From: a virus
Lineage: Duplodnaviria > Heunggongvirae > Uroviricota > Caudoviricetes
Direction: 5' to 3' (one strand)
Length of the DNA stretch: 64,000 nucleotides
Virus record (IMG/VR): IMGVR_UViG_2778261161_000002
The first letter of the stretch is position 1, and each line of letters opens with the position of its first letter. Of the stretch, positions 9,917 to 50,215 are shown in pieces. The translations under genes were made by a program, and so were the position numbers. Below the pieces are notes generated by a model, which was given only the letters and a program-made list of their open reading frames with translations, did not search any database and was not told the DNA's origin.

Positions 9917-10094
9917 CGGAATGTATGATCTGCATCATCGACTGAAGTCATCCATTGCTGAAATTTTTAGTTGATCTTCCATGTTTTCAGGCTTATATTC
10001 ATGCCGTCGTAGCAAATTCTGCGACCAGGTTTGACAGCCTGAATGTTAGTGCGGACAACCGCAGATTTCCGATATTGCGGTATTTTTGTGTCCG

Positions 10095-10215
10095 TAAACC
10101 GCGTTACGCCCGAATTATGGTGGGGCGTGATGGGGAGGCTTCGGCCTGCTGGTCTCACTAACGCCAGTCTGTCAACCCTGTCACGTCCTGCCACCTGTTT
10201 GACAGCGGGTAGCAG
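10095..10215 (+). ncRNA. c4-like antisense RNA region of an immI-type module
   Basis: GGTCTCACTAACGCC (10151-10165) is complementary to the direct repeats CCTGAATGTTAGTGCGG (10037-) and CCTGTTAGTGAGGCC (10224-); the latter overlaps the icd RBS; exact RNA ends unknown. Confidence 0.4.
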
Positions 10216-23312: not shown

Positions 23313-23389
23313 GATGGTGTAGCTCAGTAGGATAGAGCAGCAGCCTTCTAAGCTGTCGGTCGGTGGTTCGAATCCATCCACCATCGCCA
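23313..23389 (+). tRNA. tRNA-Arg (anticodon UCU)
   Basis: hand-folded cloverleaf: 7-bp acceptor GATGGTG/CACCATC, anticodon loop CTTCTAA, T-loop TTCGAAT, encoded CCA; resembles E. coli argU. Confidence 0.85.
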
Positions 23390-23391
23390 AT

Positions 23392-23464
23392 GCCGGTTTA
23401 GCTCAGTTGGTAGAGCGCCTGCCTTGTAAGCAGGATGTCAGCGGTTCGAGTCCGTTAACCGGCA
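23392..23464 (+). tRNA. tRNA-Thr (anticodon UGU)
   Basis: acceptor GCCGGTT/AACCGGC, anticodon loop CTTGTAA, T-loop TTCGAGT. Confidence 0.85.
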
Positions 23465-23476
23465 CCGACACAACAG

Positions 23477-23550
23477 GTAAGGGTATTTTGCGACGTCGGA
23501 GATCGCCGTGCTTGGCAGAGGGTTCGAATCCCTACGAAGTACCCTTACCG
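23477..23550 (+). other. tRNA-like remnant (non-canonical)
   Basis: GGTTCGAATCC T-loop motif inside a 10-bp stem GGTAAGGGTA/TACCCTTACC; no canonical cloverleaf. Confidence 0.3.
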
Positions 23551-23921
23551 TTGTGATGAAGTGCAGCTCTTTGAAGCAACCAGAAGATAAGCATCTGGCT
23601 TCACAACATAAACCGCATGAACGACCAATAAACGGTAGTCCGTATGGAGAACACCCCGTTGAGGAAGAGGCCTGGCCGGAACCGTAACCGGCACTACAAC
23701 GTTGAGAACACTGGCGTAACGGGGTCATATCCCAATCTATGAATAAATGTTGCGTTGCAGCGTGACAACCAGTGTTCTCAACATTGTGGTGAATGCGCAG
23801 GCTGATGCGCGAAAGACATTGCAGCTATTGCGGAAAAGAGCTGTTCGGCGGGGCAATTAAACGCCCGTGAGAGTCTGAAATAACCGCAAGCCGGAGATCA
23901 GCACCGGTCGCCACAATCAGC

Positions 23922-24008
23922 GGAGAGTAGGGGGCATGGTGCTCAAGCGGTCTTGAAAACCGTCCCATTGCGCAAGCGATGATGGTTCGATTCCATTACT
24001 CTCCGCCA
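23922..24008 (+). tRNA. tRNA-Ser (anticodon UGA), type II with long variable arm
   Basis: acceptor GGAGAGT/ACTCTCC, anticodon arm GGTCTTGAAAACC as in E. coli serT, T-loop TTCGATT, CCA encoded; D-arm atypical. Confidence 0.55.
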
Positions 24009-24168
24009 TCGCAACGTTAAGAGTATTTGGCTAATTAAGCGAATGCCGGAAGCAGAACCGGATCATCAAATGCGTACAGGCGTCATCGCCGCCCAGCCAG
24101 CCAAGTGCTCTTACCATTGCGGTGAATGCGGCTAAGCGCACGCGGAACAGTTAAAACAATCCTCCTTA

Positions 24169-24492
24169 GTGGTTAAGTCAAACATCCCGGCGTTAATTGT
24201 TAACTGGTTAACGTCACCTGGAGGCACCAGGCACCGCAATCTAATAAAGTTTCAAGCAATGGGGTTTTTGTTGTCAGACTTCAGATATAGATGGTTGTGG
24301 AAGGAGAGCCTGTACATAGTGCAGTTATTTCTTCCGCTATTTGTCTGCTTTGTCATGCTTCCTGAGCTGAAATACGCAATTTCAGACACTTTAAGCACTA
24401 TCGTTACTTTTGTGTTTTATCTTTACTTTGATTACTTATTGAGCACTAAAATCAATGAATTATCCGAGGAAATGCAAGGTGGCTGTAAGTGA
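24169..24492 (+). CDS. small hydrophobic protein in tRNA island (start uncertain, possibly 24259)
   Basis: AT-rich ORF with two hydrophobic helices. Confidence 0.3.
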   Translation: MVKSNIPALIVNWLTSPGGTRHRNLIKFQAMGFLLSDFRYRWLWKESLYIVQLFLPLFVCFVMLPELKYAISDTLSTIVTFVFYLYFDYLLSTKINELSEEMQGGCK

Positions 24493-24620
24493 TGGATTTT
24501 TGGGCGTTTGCCGATAAGAACCCTGGTTGGACATTTTTATTTTTGCTGGTGGTTGCATATGGGGTCGAGCAAGCGGCTAAAGCCTTACGCGGTTCTGGCA
24601 AAAAGCGTAAGCGGAATTAA
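24492..24620 (+). CDS. 42-aa membrane peptide with basic tail
   Basis: MDFWAFADKNPGWTFLFLLVVAYGVEQAAKALRGSGKKRKRN; TGATG overlap with upstream ORF; ends 10 nt before tRNA-Ile. Confidence 0.3.
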   Translation: MDFWAFADKNPGWTFLFLLVVAYGVEQAAKALRGSGKKRKRN

Positions 24621-24629
24621 CAGTAATCT

Positions 24630-24705
24630 GGCCCTTTAGCTCAGTGGTTAGAGCAGGCGACTCATAATCGCACGGTCACCGGTTCAAATCCGGTAGGGGC
24701 CACCA
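24630..24705 (+). tRNA. tRNA-Ile2 (anticodon CAU, ileX-like)
   Basis: near-identical to E. coli ileX over the D and anticodon arms; encoded CCA. Confidence 0.8.
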
Positions 24706-38417: not shown

Positions 38418-38711
38418 TTATGGTTGAATCCAGTTATCTTCAATAGCAATGCTCAATCTTTGTAACCATTCTGCTAATTTCAGCATTGCTTCTCTTTCGC
38501 TTAAACCACGAGGAAAATCATCAAGCGATATTGTTGGCTTGAAGTTTCCCAAATTATCCATTTCAACGGTCAGATTTTGCTCCAGCACGGTATTCCTTAC
38601 GCGGCTATTGTGCCGAAGCAAATATACTGAACGTGATTTATTGGTTTTGTGGTCGAACGTATATTCGGTAAGTATCATCTGGCTTCCGCCATGATTATTA
38701 CCGCGCCACAT
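38418..38711 (-). CDS. hypothetical protein
   Basis: 97 aa ORF. Confidence 0.35.
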   Translation of the reverse strand: MWRGNNHGGSQMILTEYTFDHKTNKSRSVYLLRHNSRVRNTVLEQNLTVEMDNLGNFKPTISLDDFPRGLSEREAMLKLAEWLQRLSIAIEDNWIQP

Positions 38712-38997
38712 AATTACTCCGTGTTAATTTTACCTTTATCGCGAACACCTTTACCGGTTTATCGCCGAAGTGCGGGTGTGTGATTATCTTGATTTCATAG
38801 CCGTCATACGGAACATCAATTCTGCGGCTGGAATCGTCGCGCTTCGGATATCCCTTTGTGATAATCAGGCGGTCATACTTACGGTTAACGAGGCGCTTAT
38901 TCCAGTAGTCATTACACAGGCGATACTCTTCCGTTTTCTCCCCGCGAATCATGGCATCGAAGTATTCACCTTTAACGGCAAGTTGCAGGTTAGCCAT
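38698..38997 (-). CDS. ASCH-like (DUF3850-type) small protein
   Basis: LQLAVKGEYFDAMIRGEKTEEYR resembles ASCH-domain N-terminus. Confidence 0.4.
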   Translation of the reverse strand: MANLQLAVKGEYFDAMIRGEKTEEYRLCNDYWNKRLVNRKYDRLIITKGYPKRDDSSRRIDVPYDGYEIKIITHPHFGDKPVKVFAIKVKLTRSNYVAR

Positions 38998-39257
38998 TAC
39001 CTCACCTCCAGTCTCCATACCGCCTGACCAATCCGGCTGGCATGGGTATCTTTGGATACTGTTCCGTCTTTAGCCAGCTCCATAAGAATTTTGCGCAAAT
39101 CTGCCGAACGCCATTCTTCATCAGGAAATTCCTTCTCCATTGCCAACCGCAGATTCCAGGTTGCCATCCTGAATGGATATTCCCCGCCGAGAGCTTTATC
39201 TTGCAGGGCAGCCCGGGAACGCATCACCTGCAAAACCTTCTCTTTTACATCCATCAT
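38997..39257 (-). CDS. hypothetical protein
   Basis: 86 aa ORF in operon. Confidence 0.35.
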   Translation of the reverse strand: MMDVKEKVLQVMRSRAALQDKALGGEYPFRMATWNLRLAMEKEFPDEEWRSADLRKILMELAKDGTVSKDTHASRIGQAVWRLEVR

Positions 39258-40174
39258 TCCGCCTCCTGCGGCGGTTCTGGTAGCGGCATCCAGTGAGTTA
39301 CTTTCGATGCCGGTTCTTCCCCATCGTCAGTAACTGCCCACCATTTGTTTCTCGACCAATCGTAATACCCTTCGAAGGTATTGCACTCAGTCCAGCCGTA
39401 AGACTTACCCCAACACCAAACATACTGTTTATCGTTCGGCATTCGCTCACTACAGCTTATCCAACTATCCGGAGTTCCCGGAGAGTTGCCATTTACATCG
39501 AAGTTTGGCTCTGCGTCCTGAACCAGGAGGATGTAACCATTCTTGGCCGTATCAAGTTCTAACGCCTCGGTGACGGTGCCGAAATAGCGATTACCTAAAT
39601 CAGCATCACAAGTGCTTACATCAATGGAAACTTCCATGCCTTCGATTAATTCTGGCAAGTTGTAAGTTTGGCTTACAGGTTGGCTACCCTGAAGCATGGC
39701 AGCGTGGCAGGCTTCATCAACCATAGCTTCTACGTTTTCGAGAAGTACGTAACTGTACTGCTGCCCACTAACCCATTCTTTTCTGCGAGGTAATGCGCGT
39801 GGGTCCGCTACAATGGTTCGCAAACGTTCCAGAACAGCAGGCACTACCGGCTCTACTGCCAACTGACTGGCATATTTGTTAATGGTAACGATAAGCTCTT
39901 GCTCGGCCTCATCCAGACAATCACCGATACCTCGCCTGTCACCGTCAAAATCATCGAAATCGGCACGAATCCTGGCAACCTCCCGGATTGCGGACAACAC
40001 TTCACCAGGAATAAGCGGAGAGTTGCCCGATAGTACATTCTGCTCCAGTGATGCCAGAGCAATTCGTGCCAGTTCTTCCGCTTCTTCTGCTGGCAGTACA
40101 ACGTTGCTACCAGGTCCGTATGTTTCGCGCCACTGCTTGATTGTCAGCAGTCGCTCTTTGGTAATAGTGGTCAT
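39254..40174 (-). CDS. DUF551-like C-terminal domain protein
   Basis: 306 aa; C-terminal WISC...W.W...HWMPLPEPP pattern. Confidence 0.45.
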   Translation of the reverse strand: MTTITKERLLTIKQWRETYGPGSNVVLPAEEAEELARIALASLEQNVLSGNSPLIPGEVLSAIREVARIRADFDDFDGDRRGIGDCLDEAEQELIVTINKYASQLAVEPVVPAVLERLRTIVADPRALPRRKEWVSGQQYSYVLLENVEAMVDEACHAAMLQGSQPVSQTYNLPELIEGMEVSIDVSTCDADLGNRYFGTVTEALELDTAKNGYILLVQDAEPNFDVNGNSPGTPDSWISCSERMPNDKQYVWCWGKSYGWTECNTFEGYYDWSRNKWWAVTDDGEEPASKVTHWMPLPEPPQEAE

Positions 40175-40180
40175 AGTTAG

Positions 40181-40561
40181 TTACTCTCCATAGTCTAATT
40201 TAACAAGTCGGCATTTGAGATATCCAAAATTCTCTGGCTTGGCATCTCTTAAATAAAATTCTTCAGGGAGTTTCCCCCTTATTTTTAATCTGCATAATTC
40301 TGTAAAAAACAACCCCCTATGATTTACAGGCTCACAACGCGGCATTATCACAAACAACCCAATCCTGCTACCTGATATCACAGGACATAACGCGGCATCG
40401 TTAATTGTCGACATTTGGCGCTCCTGCAAGTTAGCCAGCAAACCATGTAAAAATAGTTTCCATGATTTAAATGTTGGAATTTTTATCACGTAATGTCGCA
40501 AAACTATTACTACACGCGTTGCACCACGCCGGTTAATATAAGCTCGCCTGAAGTTTGTCAC
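40181..40561 (-). CDS. hypothetical protein
   Basis: 126 aa ORF; start uncertain. Confidence 0.3.
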   Translation of the reverse strand: MTNFRRAYINRRGATRVVIVLRHYVIKIPTFKSWKLFLHGLLANLQERQMSTINDAALCPVISGSRIGLFVIMPRCEPVNHRGLFFTELCRLKIRGKLPEEFYLRDAKPENFGYLKCRLVKLDYGE

Positions 40562-40615
40562 GGTCTAATCTCCACCCTCTGAATCTGACAGAGTTCGCGG
40601 TGTGTTAACGCCATA

Positions 40616-41113
40616 TCACTCTCCTTTGATGCGAATGCCAGTGGTACTCATTCTCCTGATTTCCCAGAGCACACGAGGAACACCACCGTTTCCGACCGGA
40701 TCGCGTTTACTCCGCAGGGCGACGCTTGATTCCGCCCAGCTTTTTCTTGGAGGAAGCTCTTTCACACGAACAAAACCAGCTGCGCGAAGAGATGCTCCTG
40801 ATTCATCTGCCTGGGTGTACGTAATACAACGTTGATAACCCATAGCTTTTGCTGCCCGCCAGATAGCACCATAAAGCGCGCTGTTAGCGTTGCGTTCTCC
40901 TGTGGTACATGTGCGATTTACTTCAAGCGTTAATCCATCGTCCAAATGTCGTGCAACAGGTCTACCGGCTGTCGCCACACCTATCAATTCTCCGGCATCA
41001 TTTCTCAGACCAATGCTGAATTTATGCCCCACCGGGGGTTTATTGTGTCGGTGATGTCTGGATATAAACGCCTTCGCAACACGAAGAGTAACCGGTGAAA
41101 TCTGCACTCTCAC
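40616..41113 (-). CDS. GNAT-fold-like phage protein
   Basis: 165 aa, GTG start overlapping upstream stop; C-terminus GIRIKGE shared with upstream gene. Confidence 0.35.
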   Translation of the reverse strand: MRVQISPVTLRVAKAFISRHHRHNKPPVGHKFSIGLRNDAGELIGVATAGRPVARHLDDGLTLEVNRTCTTGERNANSALYGAIWRAAKAMGYQRCITYTQADESGASLRAAGFVRVKELPPRKSWAESSVALRSKRDPVGNGGVPRVLWEIRRMSTTGIRIKGE

Positions 41114-41586
41114 TCTCCTTTGATGCGAATGCCAGCGGCGCGTGGCACATTAACTTCCACGATGCGCACTGTTGGTTTGTACATCTCAATTGCTGTCAGC
41201 CAGTCAGTTCCTGTCATGCGCTTTTCTGCATCGCCATTAGTCCACTGAACTGGTACACCAATAGCCTTCATCGCGATTTCTATTTCCCCGGCAATGGCGC
41301 TTTTTCCGCAACCAGTAAAACCAGATACAACGACAAGAACTTCGCCTTTTGCTGGTTTTATTTCCCGCGCCTCCACCTCTGCAATTCGGCACATAGCATC
41401 GATATTTGTGTCTTCCTGGCGTTTAACTTCATCCAATAATGCCAACGCGATATCTGGCGAAAAGTGCTTCATAAAATCGTTAAGCGCATTAATTCGCTGA
41501 TCGAAAGGCATTACAGGCGCTTCACCAGCAATTTTTGTTTTTTCAGCAATTTCACGAAGCTTTTGATAGTCAATTTTGTTTGTCAT
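41110..41586 (-). CDS. P-loop containing small phage protein
   Basis: 158 aa; Walker-A-like SGFTGCGKS; C-terminus GIRIKGE. Confidence 0.35.
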   Translation of the reverse strand: MTNKIDYQKLREIAEKTKIAGEAPVMPFDQRINALNDFMKHFSPDIALALLDEVKRQEDTNIDAMCRIAEVEAREIKPAKGEVLVVVSGFTGCGKSAIAGEIEIAMKAIGVPVQWTNGDAEKRMTGTDWLTAIEMYKPTVRIVEVNVPRAAGIRIKGE

Positions 41587-42461
41587 GCCACTACCTCTTC
41601 GAATTTCAACTCCAATTGGTCACCCCAGATTTCACATGATTCGGAACACGAACCAGTATCAAACCGCTTGGCCTGCACCATCGCCTGATACAAATTTCTG
41701 TAGTCGCTGTCGGCATACATTCTGGCAATCCCGTCAAGCGTCAGGTGACCACGGTACATAACGTCTTTACCTGTTCTGCGATGACCATCCCTGACGTGTT
41801 TGCCTGTAACCAGTTCATTAAAAACCCGCATCAGACCTGGTTCGTCTTTACATGCAAGCCCCAGCTTTTGCGTTGACTTTTTGATGCAAAAAACACAGTT
41901 CCCGAGGTGCTCCGGGATTTGCAAATCAAAAGGTTGTTTTCGCCACCACCGGATAACATCCGACTTATCAAAATCTGACAGCTCGGCAAGATACCGGACG
42001 CCCGGTTTCGGTTTCAGCCTACGGGGTTCGTCCGCACGAATACCCAGCCATGTGATGTAATTCCCTCGCCCAAAATGGTCATCGCAATATTTCGTGAAAG
42101 GGGTGAGTTTTAGCCTGTCAGTACAGAACGCGCCGCCGATGTATGGCGTACCGTACTTTTTAACCATGTCCATAAACGGTTTAAGCACCGGCATTCGCGT
42201 CTGAATATCCTTTGGTTCCCATTCCGTATAACCATTTGGCTGCCCAAGTTCTGGATTTATATCGACCTGCAACACCGTTAGCGGTACATTCCAGAACTTC
42301 ACAACCTCACGAATAAAGCGATACGTCAGAGGATGTTCACAGCCGGTATCCATAAAAATGAAATGGACGCTAGCGCCAGCTTTTCGCTGTGCTTCCATCA
42401 GATGAACGAGATAAGCCGATGTTCGTCCACCTGAAAAGCTGACGACTTGATGCATACTCAC
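41583..42461 (-). CDS. PAPS reductase-family ATP pyrophosphatase-like protein
   Basis: 292 aa; SFSGGRTS PP-loop motif. Confidence 0.65.
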   Translation of the reverse strand: MSMHQVVSFSGGRTSAYLVHLMEAQRKAGASVHFIFMDTGCEHPLTYRFIREVVKFWNVPLTVLQVDINPELGQPNGYTEWEPKDIQTRMPVLKPFMDMVKKYGTPYIGGAFCTDRLKLTPFTKYCDDHFGRGNYITWLGIRADEPRRLKPKPGVRYLAELSDFDKSDVIRWWRKQPFDLQIPEHLGNCVFCIKKSTQKLGLACKDEPGLMRVFNELVTGKHVRDGHRRTGKDVMYRGHLTLDGIARMYADSDYRNLYQAMVQAKRFDTGSCSESCEIWGDQLELKFEEVVA

Positions 42462-42464
42462 GGT

Positions 42465-43157
42465 TTATTCCTGAACGCGCTTAAACTCGATTACCCATAC
42501 CCACGGGTTAGATAGCCAGTTATCCTGCCCGTAAATACTGCGCCAGATATCACCAAAACCAACGCGATAAACAGCTTCCGGCGGCGTAATTTTGTACATC
42601 GCCGGAGATGCGCCTTCTGCTTTAGCATCTGCCTCGCTCATATCACGCAGCCGTTCCACACGCACGTCGGTAATTTCCAGCAAAATGCGCGATGCCCAGC
42701 GCGGCATGTGAATTGATGGACGCCACCCGCCATCAAATTTTTCATTCACAGTGTGAGGTTTCCAGTCGGCATCATCGGGTATCGACCACAAGCCGTAATC
42801 ACCCGGCTTTTGCTCACAACTGGCCCGATAAATCCTTGCTGCGTTCTTCTCATCGCCACGACAAAGGTTGTCGTTCCAGTCCACACTGCAACCATCCTCA
42901 TTGCCTAATATCGCCCACGCCTCACGGACCCATATGCGATCACCAACGTTACCGAACGGGCATAAACCATGTTCAGGTGCATCCATAACGTGGGTATAGA
43001 CACCATTGCGTTTCTTGGTCGGTTTACGGATAACCAGGCAGTTATCGGCCCTGACATTTTTTACAGGTCGGCGAGTCTGCGTCTTCCTTCCTTCGAGGAT
43101 GGCCCTGACCATCTCATCGTTAAAAATCATCCCGCGTTCTTTCATTTTTTGATCCAC
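42465..43157 (-). CDS. ASCH/PUA-like domain protein
   Basis: 230 aa; FNDEMVRAILEGRKTQTRRP N-terminus. Confidence 0.4.
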   Translation of the reverse strand: MDQKMKERGMIFNDEMVRAILEGRKTQTRRPVKNVRADNCLVIRKPTKKRNGVYTHVMDAPEHGLCPFGNVGDRIWVREAWAILGNEDGCSVDWNDNLCRGDEKNAARIYRASCEQKPGDYGLWSIPDDADWKPHTVNEKFDGGWRPSIHMPRWASRILLEITDVRVERLRDMSEADAKAEGASPAMYKITPPEAVYRVGFGDIWRSIYGQDNWLSNPWVWVIEFKRVQE

Positions 43158-43161
43158 CTCA

Positions 43162-44157
43162 TCAGTTATTGAACGTGATCACTCCGCGCTCGATGGCGAA
43201 GTCGAAAAGCTGGTTAGCTGCTACGTAAAGGCGTATGCCATGTGCTTTTTCCCATGCCCGGACATCGTTTTCTGCGCTTCTGGCGCAGTCATCGCAAAGA
43301 GGAACAGCCCAGCGGTCGTGTTCGTTTAACGAGCGGGCGCGGTACATGAATGGGTGATTAACCTTGCCGCCGCAGCCTACACACGGGCGAGACACCACAA
43401 ACCGGAGATAAGCCGGGCTTTTTCCGAGTAAGGTTTTTGGACGGCGCATATATAGGAGGCCAGAATCTTCATCGACGGACAGATTGACGATCTGCTCTGC
43501 GGAAATATCCACCAGCTCGCGGGTACTATGCTCCCAGGTAATATCCGACTCTTTCAGAGTGCCGGTAGGGATTTCAGTTTTTGGCTGACAAAATGCAATG
43601 CGACCAGCTTCATCAGGCAGTTCGTCTTTAAGATTCCGGCGAATGGCCCAAAAGGTGAGTTCAACCATGCTCAGATCGCGATCTGGCGGAAGTTTTAACT
43701 CGCTGGCAGCCCAGTTCATAATCCAGTTGGCGCGATTCAGTGACAGTTGGTCTTCCAGCTTGCCGTATCCCTTCATCATGTATTCCGCATCATGCTTCCA
43801 GCACAGGCGAACGGCAGAACCGTTATAGAAATGGGTGGTTAACTGGTGGCTGCAATCGCGCTTATCATGCGCCTGGCAATCGTGAATGTTGGTGCTAACC
43901 CAGTGAACGAGAGAATCCTCACCACCTAACGCGTTAAATACGCGCTCACTTTGAAAAAAGGGTGCCAGTGACTGGTTGGTAACCAGTGAATAATTCAGGT
44001 CAACGACACCATCAGGGGTGTTTTCAGCCTGTTCACGCGGCAATGGGGATATAAGAAAACGACGTCCTGCGCCGATGTAATTGCTGGTGGGCTTATCTAC
44101 AGGAAAGACAGCCACACCAGTTTCATTTACGACATATGGGGTGATTATTGCACTCAT
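43162..44157 (-). CDS. DUF968-like protein with C-terminal Cys-rich motif
   Basis: 331 aa; CVGCGG...H...CDDC cluster. Confidence 0.35.
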   Translation of the reverse strand: MSAIITPYVVNETGVAVFPVDKPTSNYIGAGRRFLISPLPREQAENTPDGVVDLNYSLVTNQSLAPFFQSERVFNALGGEDSLVHWVSTNIHDCQAHDKRDCSHQLTTHFYNGSAVRLCWKHDAEYMMKGYGKLEDQLSLNRANWIMNWAASELKLPPDRDLSMVELTFWAIRRNLKDELPDEAGRIAFCQPKTEIPTGTLKESDITWEHSTRELVDISAEQIVNLSVDEDSGLLYMRRPKTLLGKSPAYLRFVVSRPCVGCGGKVNHPFMYRARSLNEHDRWAVPLCDDCARSAENDVRAWEKAHGIRLYVAANQLFDFAIERGVITFNN

Positions 44158-44199
44158 AATGCATACCGACTCTGTTTTGTTCCGAGCGGTAAAATAATA

Positions 44200-44229
44200 T
44201 GTTAGAAAACTAAAATCAATGTTCTAACG
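44200..44229. promoter_or_regulatory. TGTTAGAAAAC ... TGTTCTAACG motif pair (operator-like site K)
   Basis: motif family member inside the leftward operon. Confidence 0.4.
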
Positions 44230-44255
44230 CATTTTTGAGTGCGTAAGTGATTTGA

Positions 44256-44948
44256 TCAGACTTTAAGCTGCCCTCCCTTCACCTGCATTAGCGTCAGATT
44301 TCCGCAAAAAACCGCGCCCGTGTCTATGTAGTGCTGATTCCAGTATGCTTTTGGTCTTCGTACCGGTGTGTGCCCAAAGATAAAGCGATCTGCGCCTGTA
44401 ATTTCTCCACCAATGCCATCTATCGAATCACCGACGCGACTGCGCGACCAGACAACATCAAAAAGCGACACATCCTTACCGAACTGGTACTCTCCACCTG
44501 GATAGTCGGCATGGGCTATAACGATAGTTTCATGCCCGGTGTTCAACTCAATGATATATGGCAGACGCTTTACCAGCTCCACCAGCGCCCTGGCTAATAT
44601 TTCCTGATCAGCGTCCAGCATGAAGAACCATTGTCCGCCATTCATTAGCCAGTTATTCACGTTGCCATCAGGACTTAACGCATCGATCATTAATCGCTCG
44701 TGGTTTCCCATAACCGACCGAAACCAGGGCATCTGCAATAGCTCCAGGCATTCAACATTTTCGGTGCCGCGATCGATAAGGTCGCCAACCGATATCAGTA
44801 AATCCTGCGCCGGGTCAAAATCCACACGATGGAGTTCGGACATCAGTCTGGTGTAGCAACCATGCAGATCACCAACAACCCATATGTTTCTGTAGCCAGA
44901 ACCATCAATACGGCTATATAAATTCACTTCATGCATAGCCTGTGTCAT
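44256..44948 (-). CDS. Ser/Thr protein phosphatase (lambda PPase-like)
   Basis: 230 aa; GDLHG, GDLIDRG, GNHE metallophosphatase motifs. Confidence 0.8.
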
Positions 44949-45256
44949 GCGGCAACCTTCTCACGCAGCCAGATACAAACCGGACCATCTTCAGTGTCAT
45001 GAATAGAGCCAACAAACCAGCCTTCACCCTCTGGTCGCTCCGGTTCCCAGGCGGCAATATCGGGACCAGCTGCGTCCAGATCAAAATCATCTTCATCCAT
45101 ACTGCGAATAGTCCACTGAAGATTATTTCCCTTCATCCAGGCGTCAAATTCCTCAGTGGAAATATATTCACGGCCTGCGCAAAACTTTTCATACTCCGGA
45201 TGTGTCCAGCAGCCATATTCATCACGTTCTACCGGCATTTCTTTAATTGTGCTCAC
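44945..45256 (-). CDS. hypothetical acidic protein
   Basis: 103 aa ORF. Confidence 0.35.
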
Positions 45257-45477
45257 TCTTCATCCTCCAAATCGGCAACGGCCTCCATCACATCAGAACC
45301 GCGAATAAACTCAAAAGCACGGCAAGCCATTTCAAACACCTGTTGTTCTTGCGGATGCGGTGACTCCCAATACTTAAAACCAGGTCGATGCTCGTAACCC
45401 ATCATGGAATAAAAATCGCCAGCAAGTTCAATCGCGGCATCAACAAGTTCGCGATTTGTCATCGTCTGTTCTGTCAT
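45253..45477 (-). CDS. hypothetical protein
   Basis: 74 aa ORF. Confidence 0.35.
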   Translation of the reverse strand: MTEQTMTNRELVDAAIELAGDFYSMMGYEHRPGFKYWESPHPQEQQVFEMACRAFEFIRGSDVMEAVADLEDEE

Positions 45478-45749
45478 TTTGTTTTCTCCTGTCTGAACAT
45501 CACTATCATCAGGTCGCCTTTTGTCGCTATCCTGGCTGTTGTGCCTGGTTCTATGCGGCTAAGTTCAAATGCGTCATAGAACGCTTCTAATGCCTTCTGG
45601 CGTAGTTCCTGTTTGCGCCGTTTTTTCCACTGTTTTAGGAAAATGGAACCCAGCCATCGCCATGTACTGGACATGATGTAAAGCCAACCGAGAAGTGCCA
45701 GTCCGGTATTTAGGGCCGTATCGATCGTTATCGTGGTGTCGATATTCAC
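45474..45749 (-). CDS. small membrane protein
   Basis: 91 aa, one TM helix, basic C-terminus. Confidence 0.35.
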   Translation of the reverse strand: MNIDTTITIDTALNTGLALLGWLYIMSSTWRWLGSIFLKQWKKRRKQELRQKALEAFYDAFELSRIEPGTTARIATKGDLMIVMFRQEKTK

Positions 45750-45994
45750 TGTGGAGGCTCCTGCTTTTCTGCCTTCAATACCATGCGAGAACCATCATCC
45801 AGCTCCCAATTAATTTCACCGCCTTCAGCCATGACTAGATGCCAAACGAGTTGTGCGGCCTCGTTGGTTACATCGCGACCGCGATCATTGCCGACACGAC
45901 GTTTTGTTCCATCCCCTAAGTCACGCATTTTTGCCAACACGATTGTTTTTGATAGCGGTGAAAAACCAAGCTGTAGTCGTGCTGAATTGCTCAC
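45746..45994 (-). CDS. hypothetical protein
   Basis: 82 aa ORF. Confidence 0.35.
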   Translation of the reverse strand: MSNSARLQLGFSPLSKTIVLAKMRDLGDGTKRRVGNDRGRDVTNEAAQLVWHLVMAEGGEINWELDDGSRMVLKAEKQEPPQ

Positions 45995-46755
45995 TGTTTG
46001 CCTCCTTTTCCAAGCTGGGCGGCGATATCTTCGAGAACGCCATCAGAGAATGAGCGGTCAAAATCACCTTCCGGCGCATTAGCCATAAACTCAGTAGAGG
46101 TAAGAATCATCCGGGCAATATCCGCGGCGTTCTTCGCAGTATCATCAATAAAACCAGCTTCCCAGGCAGCCAGCATTCTGTTCGCCACAAAGTAAGCGCC
46201 CTCCTTGCGTGCTTCAGTCTTCACTTCAGCCAGAAAAGCATCGGTGGCTGGTGTTTGCGGCATCCCTCCATCTGTTGCGCAGATATACGCATCAGATATT
46301 TCATCCTGCTCGCCATCAAACACGTAGCAACTCTGTGCGATAAATTTATTCAGCCCTGCATTCTCCGCCGCCAGCGCCGCGCGATTACCCTCCAGCTCTG
46401 CAATGCGCTGTTTTGCGGCATCAAGTTCAATCGATAATTTTTCCAACTGCTCTTTATGCTTCTTGTATTCCTGATATGCGTGCCAGGACTGACCTTTGCG
46501 CACACTATCAGTAATATCAGTAATCTGTTCTGGTGTTAGCGTGGTCAGTGGCTGTGCTGGGAAAATCAGCACTTTCCCGGAATCCCAATCAAAACCAGCG
46601 TGAATTGACTGAACCTCAACTGAGGGTGTTGAACCAATGCTGCCAGGCGAATGAACAACGATCGTTACATCCATATCGCGACGATGGCTGTGGTTATTGG
46701 ACAAAATACGATTCACCAACTCAGAAAATTTGGAGAATTTCATGCGGAGCCTCAA
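45991..46755 (-). CDS. early-operon coiled-coil protein (paralogue of 47159..47662)
   Basis: 254 aa; shares C-terminal domain TDAFLAE...A.R.LAA...GFI. Confidence 0.4.
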   Translation of the reverse strand: MRLRMKFSKFSELVNRILSNNHSHRRDMDVTIVVHSPGSIGSTPSVEVQSIHAGFDWDSGKVLIFPAQPLTTLTPEQITDITDSVRKGQSWHAYQEYKKHKEQLEKLSIELDAAKQRIAELEGNRAALAAENAGLNKFIAQSCYVFDGEQDEISDAYICATDGGMPQTPATDAFLAEVKTEARKEGAYFVANRMLAAWEAGFIDDTAKNAADIARMILTSTEFMANAPEGDFDRSFSDGVLEDIAAQLGKGGKQ

Positions 46756-49927: not shown

Positions 49928-50094
49928 AATACTGACTGTTGCGCCCTGGCATTATCGTGGGGTATATTTCTACGGCACCTTAGAAAAACGGGTGCCGGGA
50001 TTGGAACCCCGGATAATGCAAAAGGCGACACAGACGCCGAAAGCGTCTTTTCTTGTGTCATGCCATCGCACAGCCATACGTAGCGTTTAGCTCA

Positions 50095-50215
50095 GAGATC
50101 AATGGTAGTGCTGGCTGGGCTGCCGAAAGGCAGGCCGGTTCCCTTTTGCGCCGGTAGTTCCAACCCAGTCAGTGCTACCGCCATTGAGATTGGAACCTCA
50201 CGCGGTAGCTCCTTA
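50095..50215 (+). ncRNA. second c4-like antisense RNA region (distinct specificity)
   Basis: GGTAGTTCCAACC (50152-) complementary to repeated GATTGGAACC elements at 50000 and 50189; same layout as 10030-10240 with different sequence. Confidence 0.35.

Follow-up and report, generated by a model that had tools for sequence, protein, structure and literature searches.

Do three adjacent genes on an Escherichia coli phage-plasmid form one functional system, or do they only share a transcript? The question is raised by IMG/VR virus record IMGVR_UViG_2778261161_000002 (Caudoviricetes), of which we analysed a stretch of 64,000 nucleotides (nt), called the window throughout. Consecutive minus-strand genes at 41583-44157 of this window encode a relative of lambda NinC, an ASCH-like protein, and a protein with a DUF968 domain. 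A first-pass annotation had suggested that this trio could be a DNA/RNA modification or counter-defence module, and named profile searches and genomic-neighbourhood analysis as ways of checking the idea. We favour a different explanation, to which we assign a probability of roughly 0.6: the three would be separate, non-essential accessory genes that came to be adjacent by chance through mosaic phage evolution, co-transcribed without being a dedicated system. The operon that holds them would be an accessory one, stocked with gene families typical of the lambdoid "nin" and "ea" regions. We infer the biochemical activities proposed below for individual genes from comparisons of their sequences.

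Co-occurrence of the three genes

We evaluated the conservation of the trio by collecting IMG/VR loci anchored on each gene in turn, keeping the best-scoring 80 per scan and seeking partner genes within 8 kb. Each gene was mostly found without the other two. Among 79 loci anchored on the ASCH-like gene, NinC lay immediately downstream in seven and DUF968 immediately upstream in 12, with the full trio present in four. Clustering all neighbours of the ASCH-like gene in these 79 loci revealed no conserved partner. The anchor on NinC also recovered four full trios, in this case from 80 loci. Thirteen of these 80 NinC genes were at least 98% identical, and the remaining 67, at 93-96%, belonged to Shiga toxin (Stx)/lambdoid phages and occurred without the ASCH-like gene, DUF968, or the phosphatase gene that lies upstream of the trio in the window.

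Loci anchored on DUF968 were fewer (35) and more regular. The phosphatase gene was directly upstream in 34 of them, and the remaining one was cut by a contig end. The ASCH-like gene came next in 19 loci, NinC was found in seven, and the full trio was found in six. Individual phages likewise carry single members: phage D6 has DUF968 without NinC or the ASCH-like gene, and in the early-left region of Stx phage Ss-VASD, NinC is the only one of the three. Among 5,426 complete E. coli genomes, the region was matched at 80% coverage or more in 12 and in parts in 1,458. Judged from gene order, DUF968 and the phosphatase make up a stable backbone pair, and the two other genes behave as cassettes that move independently. 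The neighbourhood analysis thus went against the first-pass interpretation, as the trio was not conserved and the ASCH-like gene was missing from 109 of 112 more distant NinC loci that are described with NinC below. A nucleic-acid-directed role is still plausible for each of the three families, but one joint modification or counter-defence module is not what the counts of full trios (4/79, 4/80, and 6/35 loci) indicate.

The locus and the element that carries it

The open reading frame (ORF) coordinates bear out the initial description of the locus, with three consecutive minus-strand ORFs spanning exactly 41583-44157. The gaps between them are 4 nt (43157/43162 junction) and 3 nt (42461/42465 junction), and an upstream ORF of 230 amino acids (44256-44948) lies 98 nt from the DUF968 gene (43162-44157). 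The GC skew is negative from 36 to ~48 kb, with which minus-strand coding at 36-48 kb is consistent, and every plus-strand ORF within 41583-44157 is shorter than 100 amino acids. A promoter and terminator consensus scan of 38-50 kb found nothing that exceeded the shuffled background, and an Rfam scan gave no match inside 41-45 kb. The tight junctions and the lack of promoter or terminator signals in that scan place the trio genes within one long, packed leftward operon. Each gene has many homologues (PHROG scores of 313, 303, and 349 bits in coordinate order), which indicates that the three are real genes and not chance ORFs. The idea of pseudogenes or chance ORFs was accordingly rejected, all three ORFs being intact, full-length, and conserved.

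A 3.3-kb region around the trio matched ~92-kb E. coli plasmids (e.g., NZ_CP067430) at 99.6% identity and 97% coverage, and the genes are annotated there in RefSeq. The annotation of NZ_CP067430 includes phd/doc, an S24 peptidase, dut, ref, icd, and a Rha-family regulator, and D6/P1-like gene content is represented by phd/doc, humD, ref, and icd. The match to phage D6 itself was limited to the DUF968 and phosphatase part of the region. By gene content and similarity, the element is a P1/D6-type E. coli phage-plasmid. The nearest relatives of the trio are named ones in lambda and P1, near-identical copies of it are already annotated in RefSeq, and the finding itself is not new. It would be wrong to annotate the trio as a "system"; this block is an ordinary phage mosaic whose genes are annotated and uncharacterised.

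The lambda nin region (NinB, NinC, NinG/RusA, YbcO, NinH, NinI) offers the closest comparison for this gene pool. The window has a NinI-like phosphatase, a His-Me protein related to YbcO/YdfU, and NinC, and in lambda or P1 the shared nin-type genes are all dispensable and of the delayed-early class. The two regions differ in that the window genes are on a phage-plasmid replicon, in another order and orientation, with no NinB, NinG, or Q nearby. The ASCH-like gene falls outside the classical nin set.

NinC (41583-42461)

The gene at 41583-42461 (minus strand, 292 amino acids) is by sequence identity an orthologue of lambda ninC, with 228 of 285 residues identical (80%) in a gap-free alignment. 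Its counterparts in Stx phages, at 93% DNA identity, are annotated as NinC. The window protein and lambda NinC have the same length, PP-loop, and invariant cysteines. Their genomic contexts differ: lambda ninC follows ninB and lies between P and Q, whereas the window copy follows the ASCH-like gene and precedes an Ead/Ea22 gene in a phage-plasmid operon.

The earlier assignment to the PAPS reductase family of PP-loop proteins was confirmed. NinC scored 37.7 bits against Pfam PAPS_reduct (PF01507; cut-off 22.5), a match confined to residues 6-72, and 313 bits against phrog_424 ("PAPS reductase"). Across the trio, the profile searches placed PAPS_reduct and DUF968 above their cut-offs and ASCH below. 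The SGGRTS motif of the PP-loop (S10-G-G-R-T-S15) is nearly fixed among 24 family members, with S10, G11, G12, R13, and S15 invariant. The same 24 members, down to 51% identity, have invariant cysteines at C113, C126, C189/C192 (CxxC), and C272/C276 (CxxxC).

A genuine PAPS/APS reductase (CysH) was ruled out, since scores were far below those of the corresponding families (PRK02090, 21.9 vs 154; TIGR00434, 14.8 vs 165; TIGR02057, 13 vs 254). The hallmark of CysH is a C-terminal catalytic cysteine in an ECGLH-type motif. The C-terminus of NinC (...DTGSCSESCEIWG...) contains no ECGLH-type motif.

The closest defence-system model in PADLOC was SspD (48.8 bits, E 1.8e-13), matched over the N-terminal half only (residues 5-148), followed by weaker matches to BrxP (17.8 bits) and DndC (17.2 bits). 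NinC resembles these DNA-phosphorothioation ATP-pyrophosphatases in its N-terminal PP-loop core and in having conserved cysteines that might bind a metal or iron-sulfur (Fe-S) centre. It differs from DndC in falling far short of the family level (TIGR03183 score of 17.8 against a cut-off of 290.4), and from all three in being phage-borne and not located in a host defence island. Among the neighbouring ORFs at 38698-46755 (ten proteins searched with Pfam and PHROGs, eight with PADLOC), none was identified as a cysteine desulfurase, as an ATPase of the DndD/SspC type, or as a DndE/SspB partner, and the annotation of the closest plasmid likewise contained no Dnd/Ssp partner genes. The literature that we searched held no report of phosphorothioation by NinC, and searches for an experimentally determined function of NinC or PdcB returned essentiality data only. 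Lambda ninC is dispensable by CRISPR interference and classical data (PMC10695390). Some close relatives carry a NinC (P0131; locus L005:8697-9368) that is cut short at ~230 residues and continues in frame into a C-terminal DUF551 part. The fusion is a deletion joint, and it shows NinC to be dispensable in this element.

Recurrent neighbours of NinC were evident among its more distant relatives. In lambdoid prophages, a 54%-identical NinC came after NinB in five of five places examined, with classical nin genes downstream. Family members at ~51-55% identity have a phage Dam N6-adenine methyltransferase domain (PF05869) as a C-terminal fusion. These fusions (P0214, P0226, P0237, P0239, and loci L269-L288) are 465-511 amino acids long, one natural example comes from Vibrio phage 44E38.1, and many lambdoid contigs carry an unfused Dam gene that overlaps the NinC start. 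We counted such arrangements in a set of 112 non-redundant loci, for which two distant NinC proteins served as anchors. NinB was directly upstream in 37 of these. Dam formed part of a fusion in 17, was a direct neighbour in 13, and was located at another place within the locus in six. An ASCH-like gene was present in three, more than 6 kb away in two of them. A profile built from the NinC-Dam fusion proteins found no Dam-type methylase in the window. Fusion and adjacency to Dam provide a genuine "Rosetta-stone" pointer, which hints that NinC acts on DNA.

We infer that NinC would be an ATP-using, adenylating PP-loop enzyme in which four cysteines bind a metal or an Fe-S centre. Because its nearest characterised relatives are SspD, DndC, and BrxP, and because it is repeatedly fused or adjacent to Dam, its predicted target is most likely a nucleic acid and probably DNA. 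A more specific proposal, which we consider doubtful, is that NinC may modify nucleic acids through an ATP-dependent reaction assisted by cysteines or an Fe-S centre. It could carry out a thiolation, or modify DNA in a phosphorothioate-like manner or at a base, and it may act together with adenine methylation of the Dam type and, in some phages, with a His-Me protein of the PdcB/YdfU type. If this were true, the window NinC would mark an undiscovered, low-level modification of phage DNA (or tRNA) aimed against host defence. The kinship to phosphorothioation enzymes, the intact PP-loop, the four invariant cysteines, and the fused or adjacent Dam at roughly one in four of the distant loci make a DNA-directed activity a hypothesis that can be tested.

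The ASCH-fold protein (42465-43157)

The gene at 42465-43157 (minus strand, 230 amino acids) encodes an ASCH-fold protein of a very large phage family. Its own score against Pfam ASCH (PF04266) was 18.2 bits, below the cut-off of 21.2, and covered only a fragment at residues 160-186; it was assigned to phrog_874 (labelled as of unknown function) with 303 bits. When 62 diverse homologues were searched, 12 matched Pfam ASCH (E up to 0.01, best 2.9e-6) and none matched any other family. The family comprises 43,570 clusters at 50% identity (E up to 1e-3), and its members typically match through N-terminal and C-terminal stretches that flank a variable middle. An AlphaFold2 (AF2) model computed from an alignment of 62 diverse representatives was confident (predicted local distance difference test score, pLDDT, of 86.9; predicted template modelling score of 0.84) and shows the ASCH beta-barrel. 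Fold comparison alone gave a result at the level of the PDB, as sequence searches of the PDB returned nothing significant (a single-sequence hit of E 0.6 to ASC-1 and no match with two profiles). An earlier AlphaFold model from a shallow alignment (32 sequences, 63-91% identity) had a pLDDT of 52.9 and was discarded. The initial description of this protein as ASCH/PUA-like therefore holds at the level of fold, through the AF2 model and the homologue matches, although the Pfam score stayed below the cut-off; its conserved residues suggest an enzyme and not a mere reader of modified bases.

These residues begin with the octapeptide G23-R-K25-T-Q-T28-R-R30, of the form GxKxx[T/S]xR. In the 62 diverse members, K25 is invariant and conservation is 90% or more at G23, T28, and R30. 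K25, T28, and R30 align to K21, T24, and R26 of YqfB. E181 is also at least 90% conserved and tentatively aligns with Glu74 of YqfB, an equivalence that depends on a pairwise alignment containing gaps, whose z against shuffles is a modest 3.0. A global HHalign comparison with YqfB produced a meaningless, forced C-terminal alignment, and the gapped pairwise alignment with its shuffle control was used instead. YqfB is an N4-acetylcytidine amidohydrolase in which Lys21, Thr24, and Arg26 are essential and mutation of Glu74 cuts turnover 100- to 1,000-fold (PMC6972931). Nineteen ASCH proteins have been reported to strip N4-acetylcytidine from tRNA, in subgroups with GK[T/S]R (YqfB-type) or GKER octapeptides (bioRxiv 10.64898/2026.02.27.708502).

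The likeness to YqfB thus consists of the GxKxxTxR octapeptide and a C-terminal "VIEFK" strand, to which the conserved glutamate tentatively aligned to Glu74 may be added. The window protein differs in its length (230 vs 103 amino acids), in three inserts that are exchanged between alleles, in being phage-encoded, and in its sub-threshold match to Pfam ASCH. Since the conserved K25, T28, R30, and, tentatively, E181 fall on the catalytic residues of YqfB, the protein is a probable N-acyl-base amidohydrolase and not a passive "reader". It would remove an N-acyl group from a cytosine-type base, the substrate being N4-acetylcytidine, either as the free nucleoside or within tRNA. The family as a whole (PHROG 874) could be a phage-encoded eraser of N4-acetylcytidine.

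The three variable inserts in the barrel are at residues ~31-66, 85-145, and 183-205. The alleles located between near-identical DUF968 and NinC genes (those of the window and of loci L011, L085, L087, L089, and L093) are intragenic mosaics, in which the core segments are almost identical and the three insert regions are swapped in differing combinations. This swapping suggests diversification of a specificity surface, and the swappable surface inserts probably set the specificity for a substrate or a partner.

A second ASCH-type protein of 106 amino acids is encoded at 38698-39018 (minus strand). It belongs to phrog_625, and a homologue is named "ASCH domain-containing protein" by PGAP. Its octapeptide has the canonical GxKxxExR form, here GEKTEEYR, and with the YqfB-type protein of 230 amino acids nearby, both ASCH subtypes are represented in one operon.

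The PdcB-type DUF968 protein (43162-44157) and its phosphatase partner

The gene at 43162-44157 (minus strand, 331 amino acids) encodes a member of the family that includes P1 PdcB and YdfU of the E. coli Qin prophage, both DUF968 proteins of His-Me finger group 7. DUF968 has been placed within the His-Me finger superfamily (PMC5714182). The protein matched DUF968 (PF06147) with 153.3 bits against a cut-off of 27.8, over residues 161-325 and all of the profile (positions 1-171 of 171), and phrog_96 ("HNH endonuclease") with 349 bits. Its description as a Cys-rich protein also proved right, with seven invariant cysteines (C94, C119, C190, C259, C262, C288, and C291). Its N-terminal region has conserved cysteines and histidines, and C259/C262 and C288/C291 form a C-terminal zinc ribbon of the CxxC...CxxC type. 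Identity was 94.9% to a pdcB-like gene of D6, 38.7% to P1 PdcB over 99% of the length, and ~26% to lambdoid YdfU-family proteins. The close subtype is narrow, with 19 clusters found mostly on ~90-kb contigs.

The catalytic positions set this clade apart from its distant relatives. Twelve distant full-length homologues beside NinC, of the lambdoid/Vibrio type, read DPHH...HD...(C/H)HxxLH (one ending in IH), whereas the window protein and its clade read PFMY...HD...CARSAE and P1 PdcB reads PYIV...CQRDIE. What the window clade retains is the CxxC...CxxC zinc site and, among the histidines, H280 alone. P1 PdcB (L340:3001-4044) is alike in that the DPHH and CHxxLH histidines are gone there too, and the lambdoid/Vibrio homologues, which keep the HNH histidines, are possibly active nucleases, unlike the window clade. 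From the loss of the DPHH and CHxxLH histidines in comparison with loci L270-L322, the P1/D6 PdcB clade is predicted to be inactive; it is probably not an active HNH nuclease, and the label "HNH endonuclease" is probably wrong for it. The protein keeps the zinc-ribbon scaffold and would probably bind DNA or a partner protein instead of cutting. This amounts to a pseudo-nuclease hypothesis for a clade annotated "HNH endonuclease". In P1, pdcB is dispensable and has no assigned function (PMC10695390, PMC10067587).

An Orf/NinB-like domain has been reported for Gram-positive DUF968 proteins (PMC4118853). We examined the window protein for this domain, as it would have tied DUF968 to the adjacency of ninB and ninC in lambda. 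It was rejected: BLASTP returned nothing, and HHalign gave a probability of 0.1% in a comparison of 25 DUF968 with 30 NinB sequences.

The gene order upstream of pdcB depends on the element. In P1, pdcB follows phd-doc-pdcA, whereas in D6-type elements and the window it follows ppp. The phosphatase in question (44256-44948, minus strand, 230 amino acids) is a NinI/P1 Ppp-like Ser/Thr metallophosphatase, with matches to Pfam Metallophos (59 bits) and phrog_246 ("NinI-like", 366 bits) and with a D6 counterpart annotated as "similar to P1 ppp". By its recurrence across loci, the pair of PdcB-type DUF968 protein and Ppp/NinI phosphatase is part of the phage-plasmid backbone.

Weighing the alternatives

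Several observations weigh against the view that the three genes are adjacent by chance. The trio is co-transcribed and all three folds are nucleic-acid-related, so cooperation is compatible with the sequence. The locus samples are not phylogenetically independent and come mostly from Enterobacteriaceae. Within the phage-plasmid lineage, NinC genes (at least 98% identical) follow an ASCH-like gene in 12 of 13 loci. Full-length DUF968 homologues of a distant lineage lie downstream of NinC or NinC-Dam in 12 loci, with short ones in five more, which hints at a NinC-DUF968 link. For the ASCH-fold protein, the match of E181 to Glu74 is subject to the alignment limit given above. These points bear on three other explanations.

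The first is that NinC and a DUF968 protein of the PdcB/YdfU type are a functional pair in DNA modification or processing, often with Dam, and that the ASCH-like gene is an inserted passenger. We consider this unlikely. Among the 112 distant NinC loci, the 12 full-length DUF968 homologues scored 134-204 bits against a profile of the window clade and were located 0-2.2 kb downstream of NinC; eight of these loci have a NinC-Dam fusion and four have a long NinC without a detected Dam domain. Stop and start codons overlap in three of the pairs. The thirteenth phage-plasmid NinC locus (L095/L164) fits as well, with DUF968 followed directly by NinC and no ASCH-like gene. However, both genes are habitually found in the stretch of lambdoid phages that runs from the replication genes to Q, and their linkage may simply reflect a shared "nin" pool. 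Anything from 0 to 4 genes intervene, and the 17 loci are possibly one or few lineages. Closer to the window, no PdcB-type gene is present within 8 kb in 67 of the 80 close NinC loci, and no NinC in 28 of the 35 PdcB-type loci. The lambda nin region itself has NinC and no DUF968 gene, and the DUF968 protein of the window clade is predicted to be catalytically dead. The link is thus an interesting hint, confounded by the shared replication-to-Q habitat, the varying gene spacing, and a possible single lineage.

The second explanation is the one first proposed for this locus, a single modification or counter-defence module, in which NinC would install a sulfur- or adenylate-dependent mark, the ASCH-like protein would recognise or edit it, and the DUF968 protein would target or cut DNA. 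Besides tight co-transcription and the three folds, it can draw on an identical block in at least 12 E. coli plasmids and several IMG/VR contigs. We nevertheless regard it as very unlikely. The full trio makes up a small minority of the occurrences of each gene, and single members are found in D6 and Stx phages. NinC genes that are 98-99% identical lie beside ASCH alleles that are 57-99% identical, as measured for the 12 phage-plasmid loci, which argues for recent insertion of a cassette followed by recombination and not for co-evolution. The catalytic histidines are gone from this DUF968 clade, and no sulfur donor, ATPase, or DNA-recognition partner of the Dnd/Ssp kind was found among the neighbours searched.

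A functional pair of the ASCH-like protein and NinC, in which, for example, NinC would make an N-acyl or thio base that the ASCH-like protein trims or reads, is most improbable: the 12 of 13 phage-plasmid NinC genes immediately downstream of an ASCH-like gene do occur in two different upstream contexts, but NinC is found at only seven of the 79 ASCH-like loci, the ASCH-like gene is found in none of the 67 Stx/lambdoid NinC loci and is missing from the 109 distant ones counted above, the pairing of near-identical NinC with strongly divergent ASCH alleles is in keeping with one insertion site passed on through descent and recombination, and the ASCH-like family is far larger than that of NinC (43,570 clusters at 50% identity vs ~5,000 matches of the NinC search in 90% identity clusters).

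Neighbouring genes and other features of the window

Downstream of NinC, the gene at 41110-41586 (minus strand) encodes an Ead/Ea22-like protein of 158 amino acids (Pfam Ead_Ea22, 28.8 bits), with a 4-nt overlap between its start and the stop of NinC. The match to the best E. coli plasmids breaks off at ~41109, at the end of this gene. A repeat search found short matches only, apart from one 29-nt joint outside the trio. This is a direct repeat, 97% identical, at 40616-40644 and 41110-41138, which are the 3' ends of an XF1762-family gene and the Ead/Ea22 gene; the two proteins have a common C-terminus (...GIRIKGE). Similarity to the closest plasmids ends exactly at this repeat, apparently the joint at which recombination brought in the XF1762 cassette.

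The XF1762-family protein (40616-41113, minus strand, 165 amino acids) matched the NCBIfam "XF1762 family" with 204 bits and the PHROG "Mom-like DNA modification protein" at 1e-41, with Pfam Mom sub-threshold (22.5 vs 27.1). Its gene was not in any related locus that carries the trio and often adjoins Ead/Ea22 genes in prophages of E. coli chromosomes. As a candidate for a DNA-modifying function, the protein equals any member of the trio. PADLOC models gave no match for the XF1762-family protein, Ead, the small ASCH protein, the ASCH-like protein, DUF968, or the phosphatase.

Elsewhere in the window, Rfam identified two C4 antisense RNAs of the P1 type, isrK, and three tRNAs (9993-10198, 49975-50185, and 23313-24702), a set also known from immunity and accessory regions of P1-type elements. 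One C4 RNA has an a1/b1 target and the other is preceded by isrK. The two C4 RNAs and the tRNAs fit a phage-plasmid of the P1/D6 kind with two immunity-type regions.

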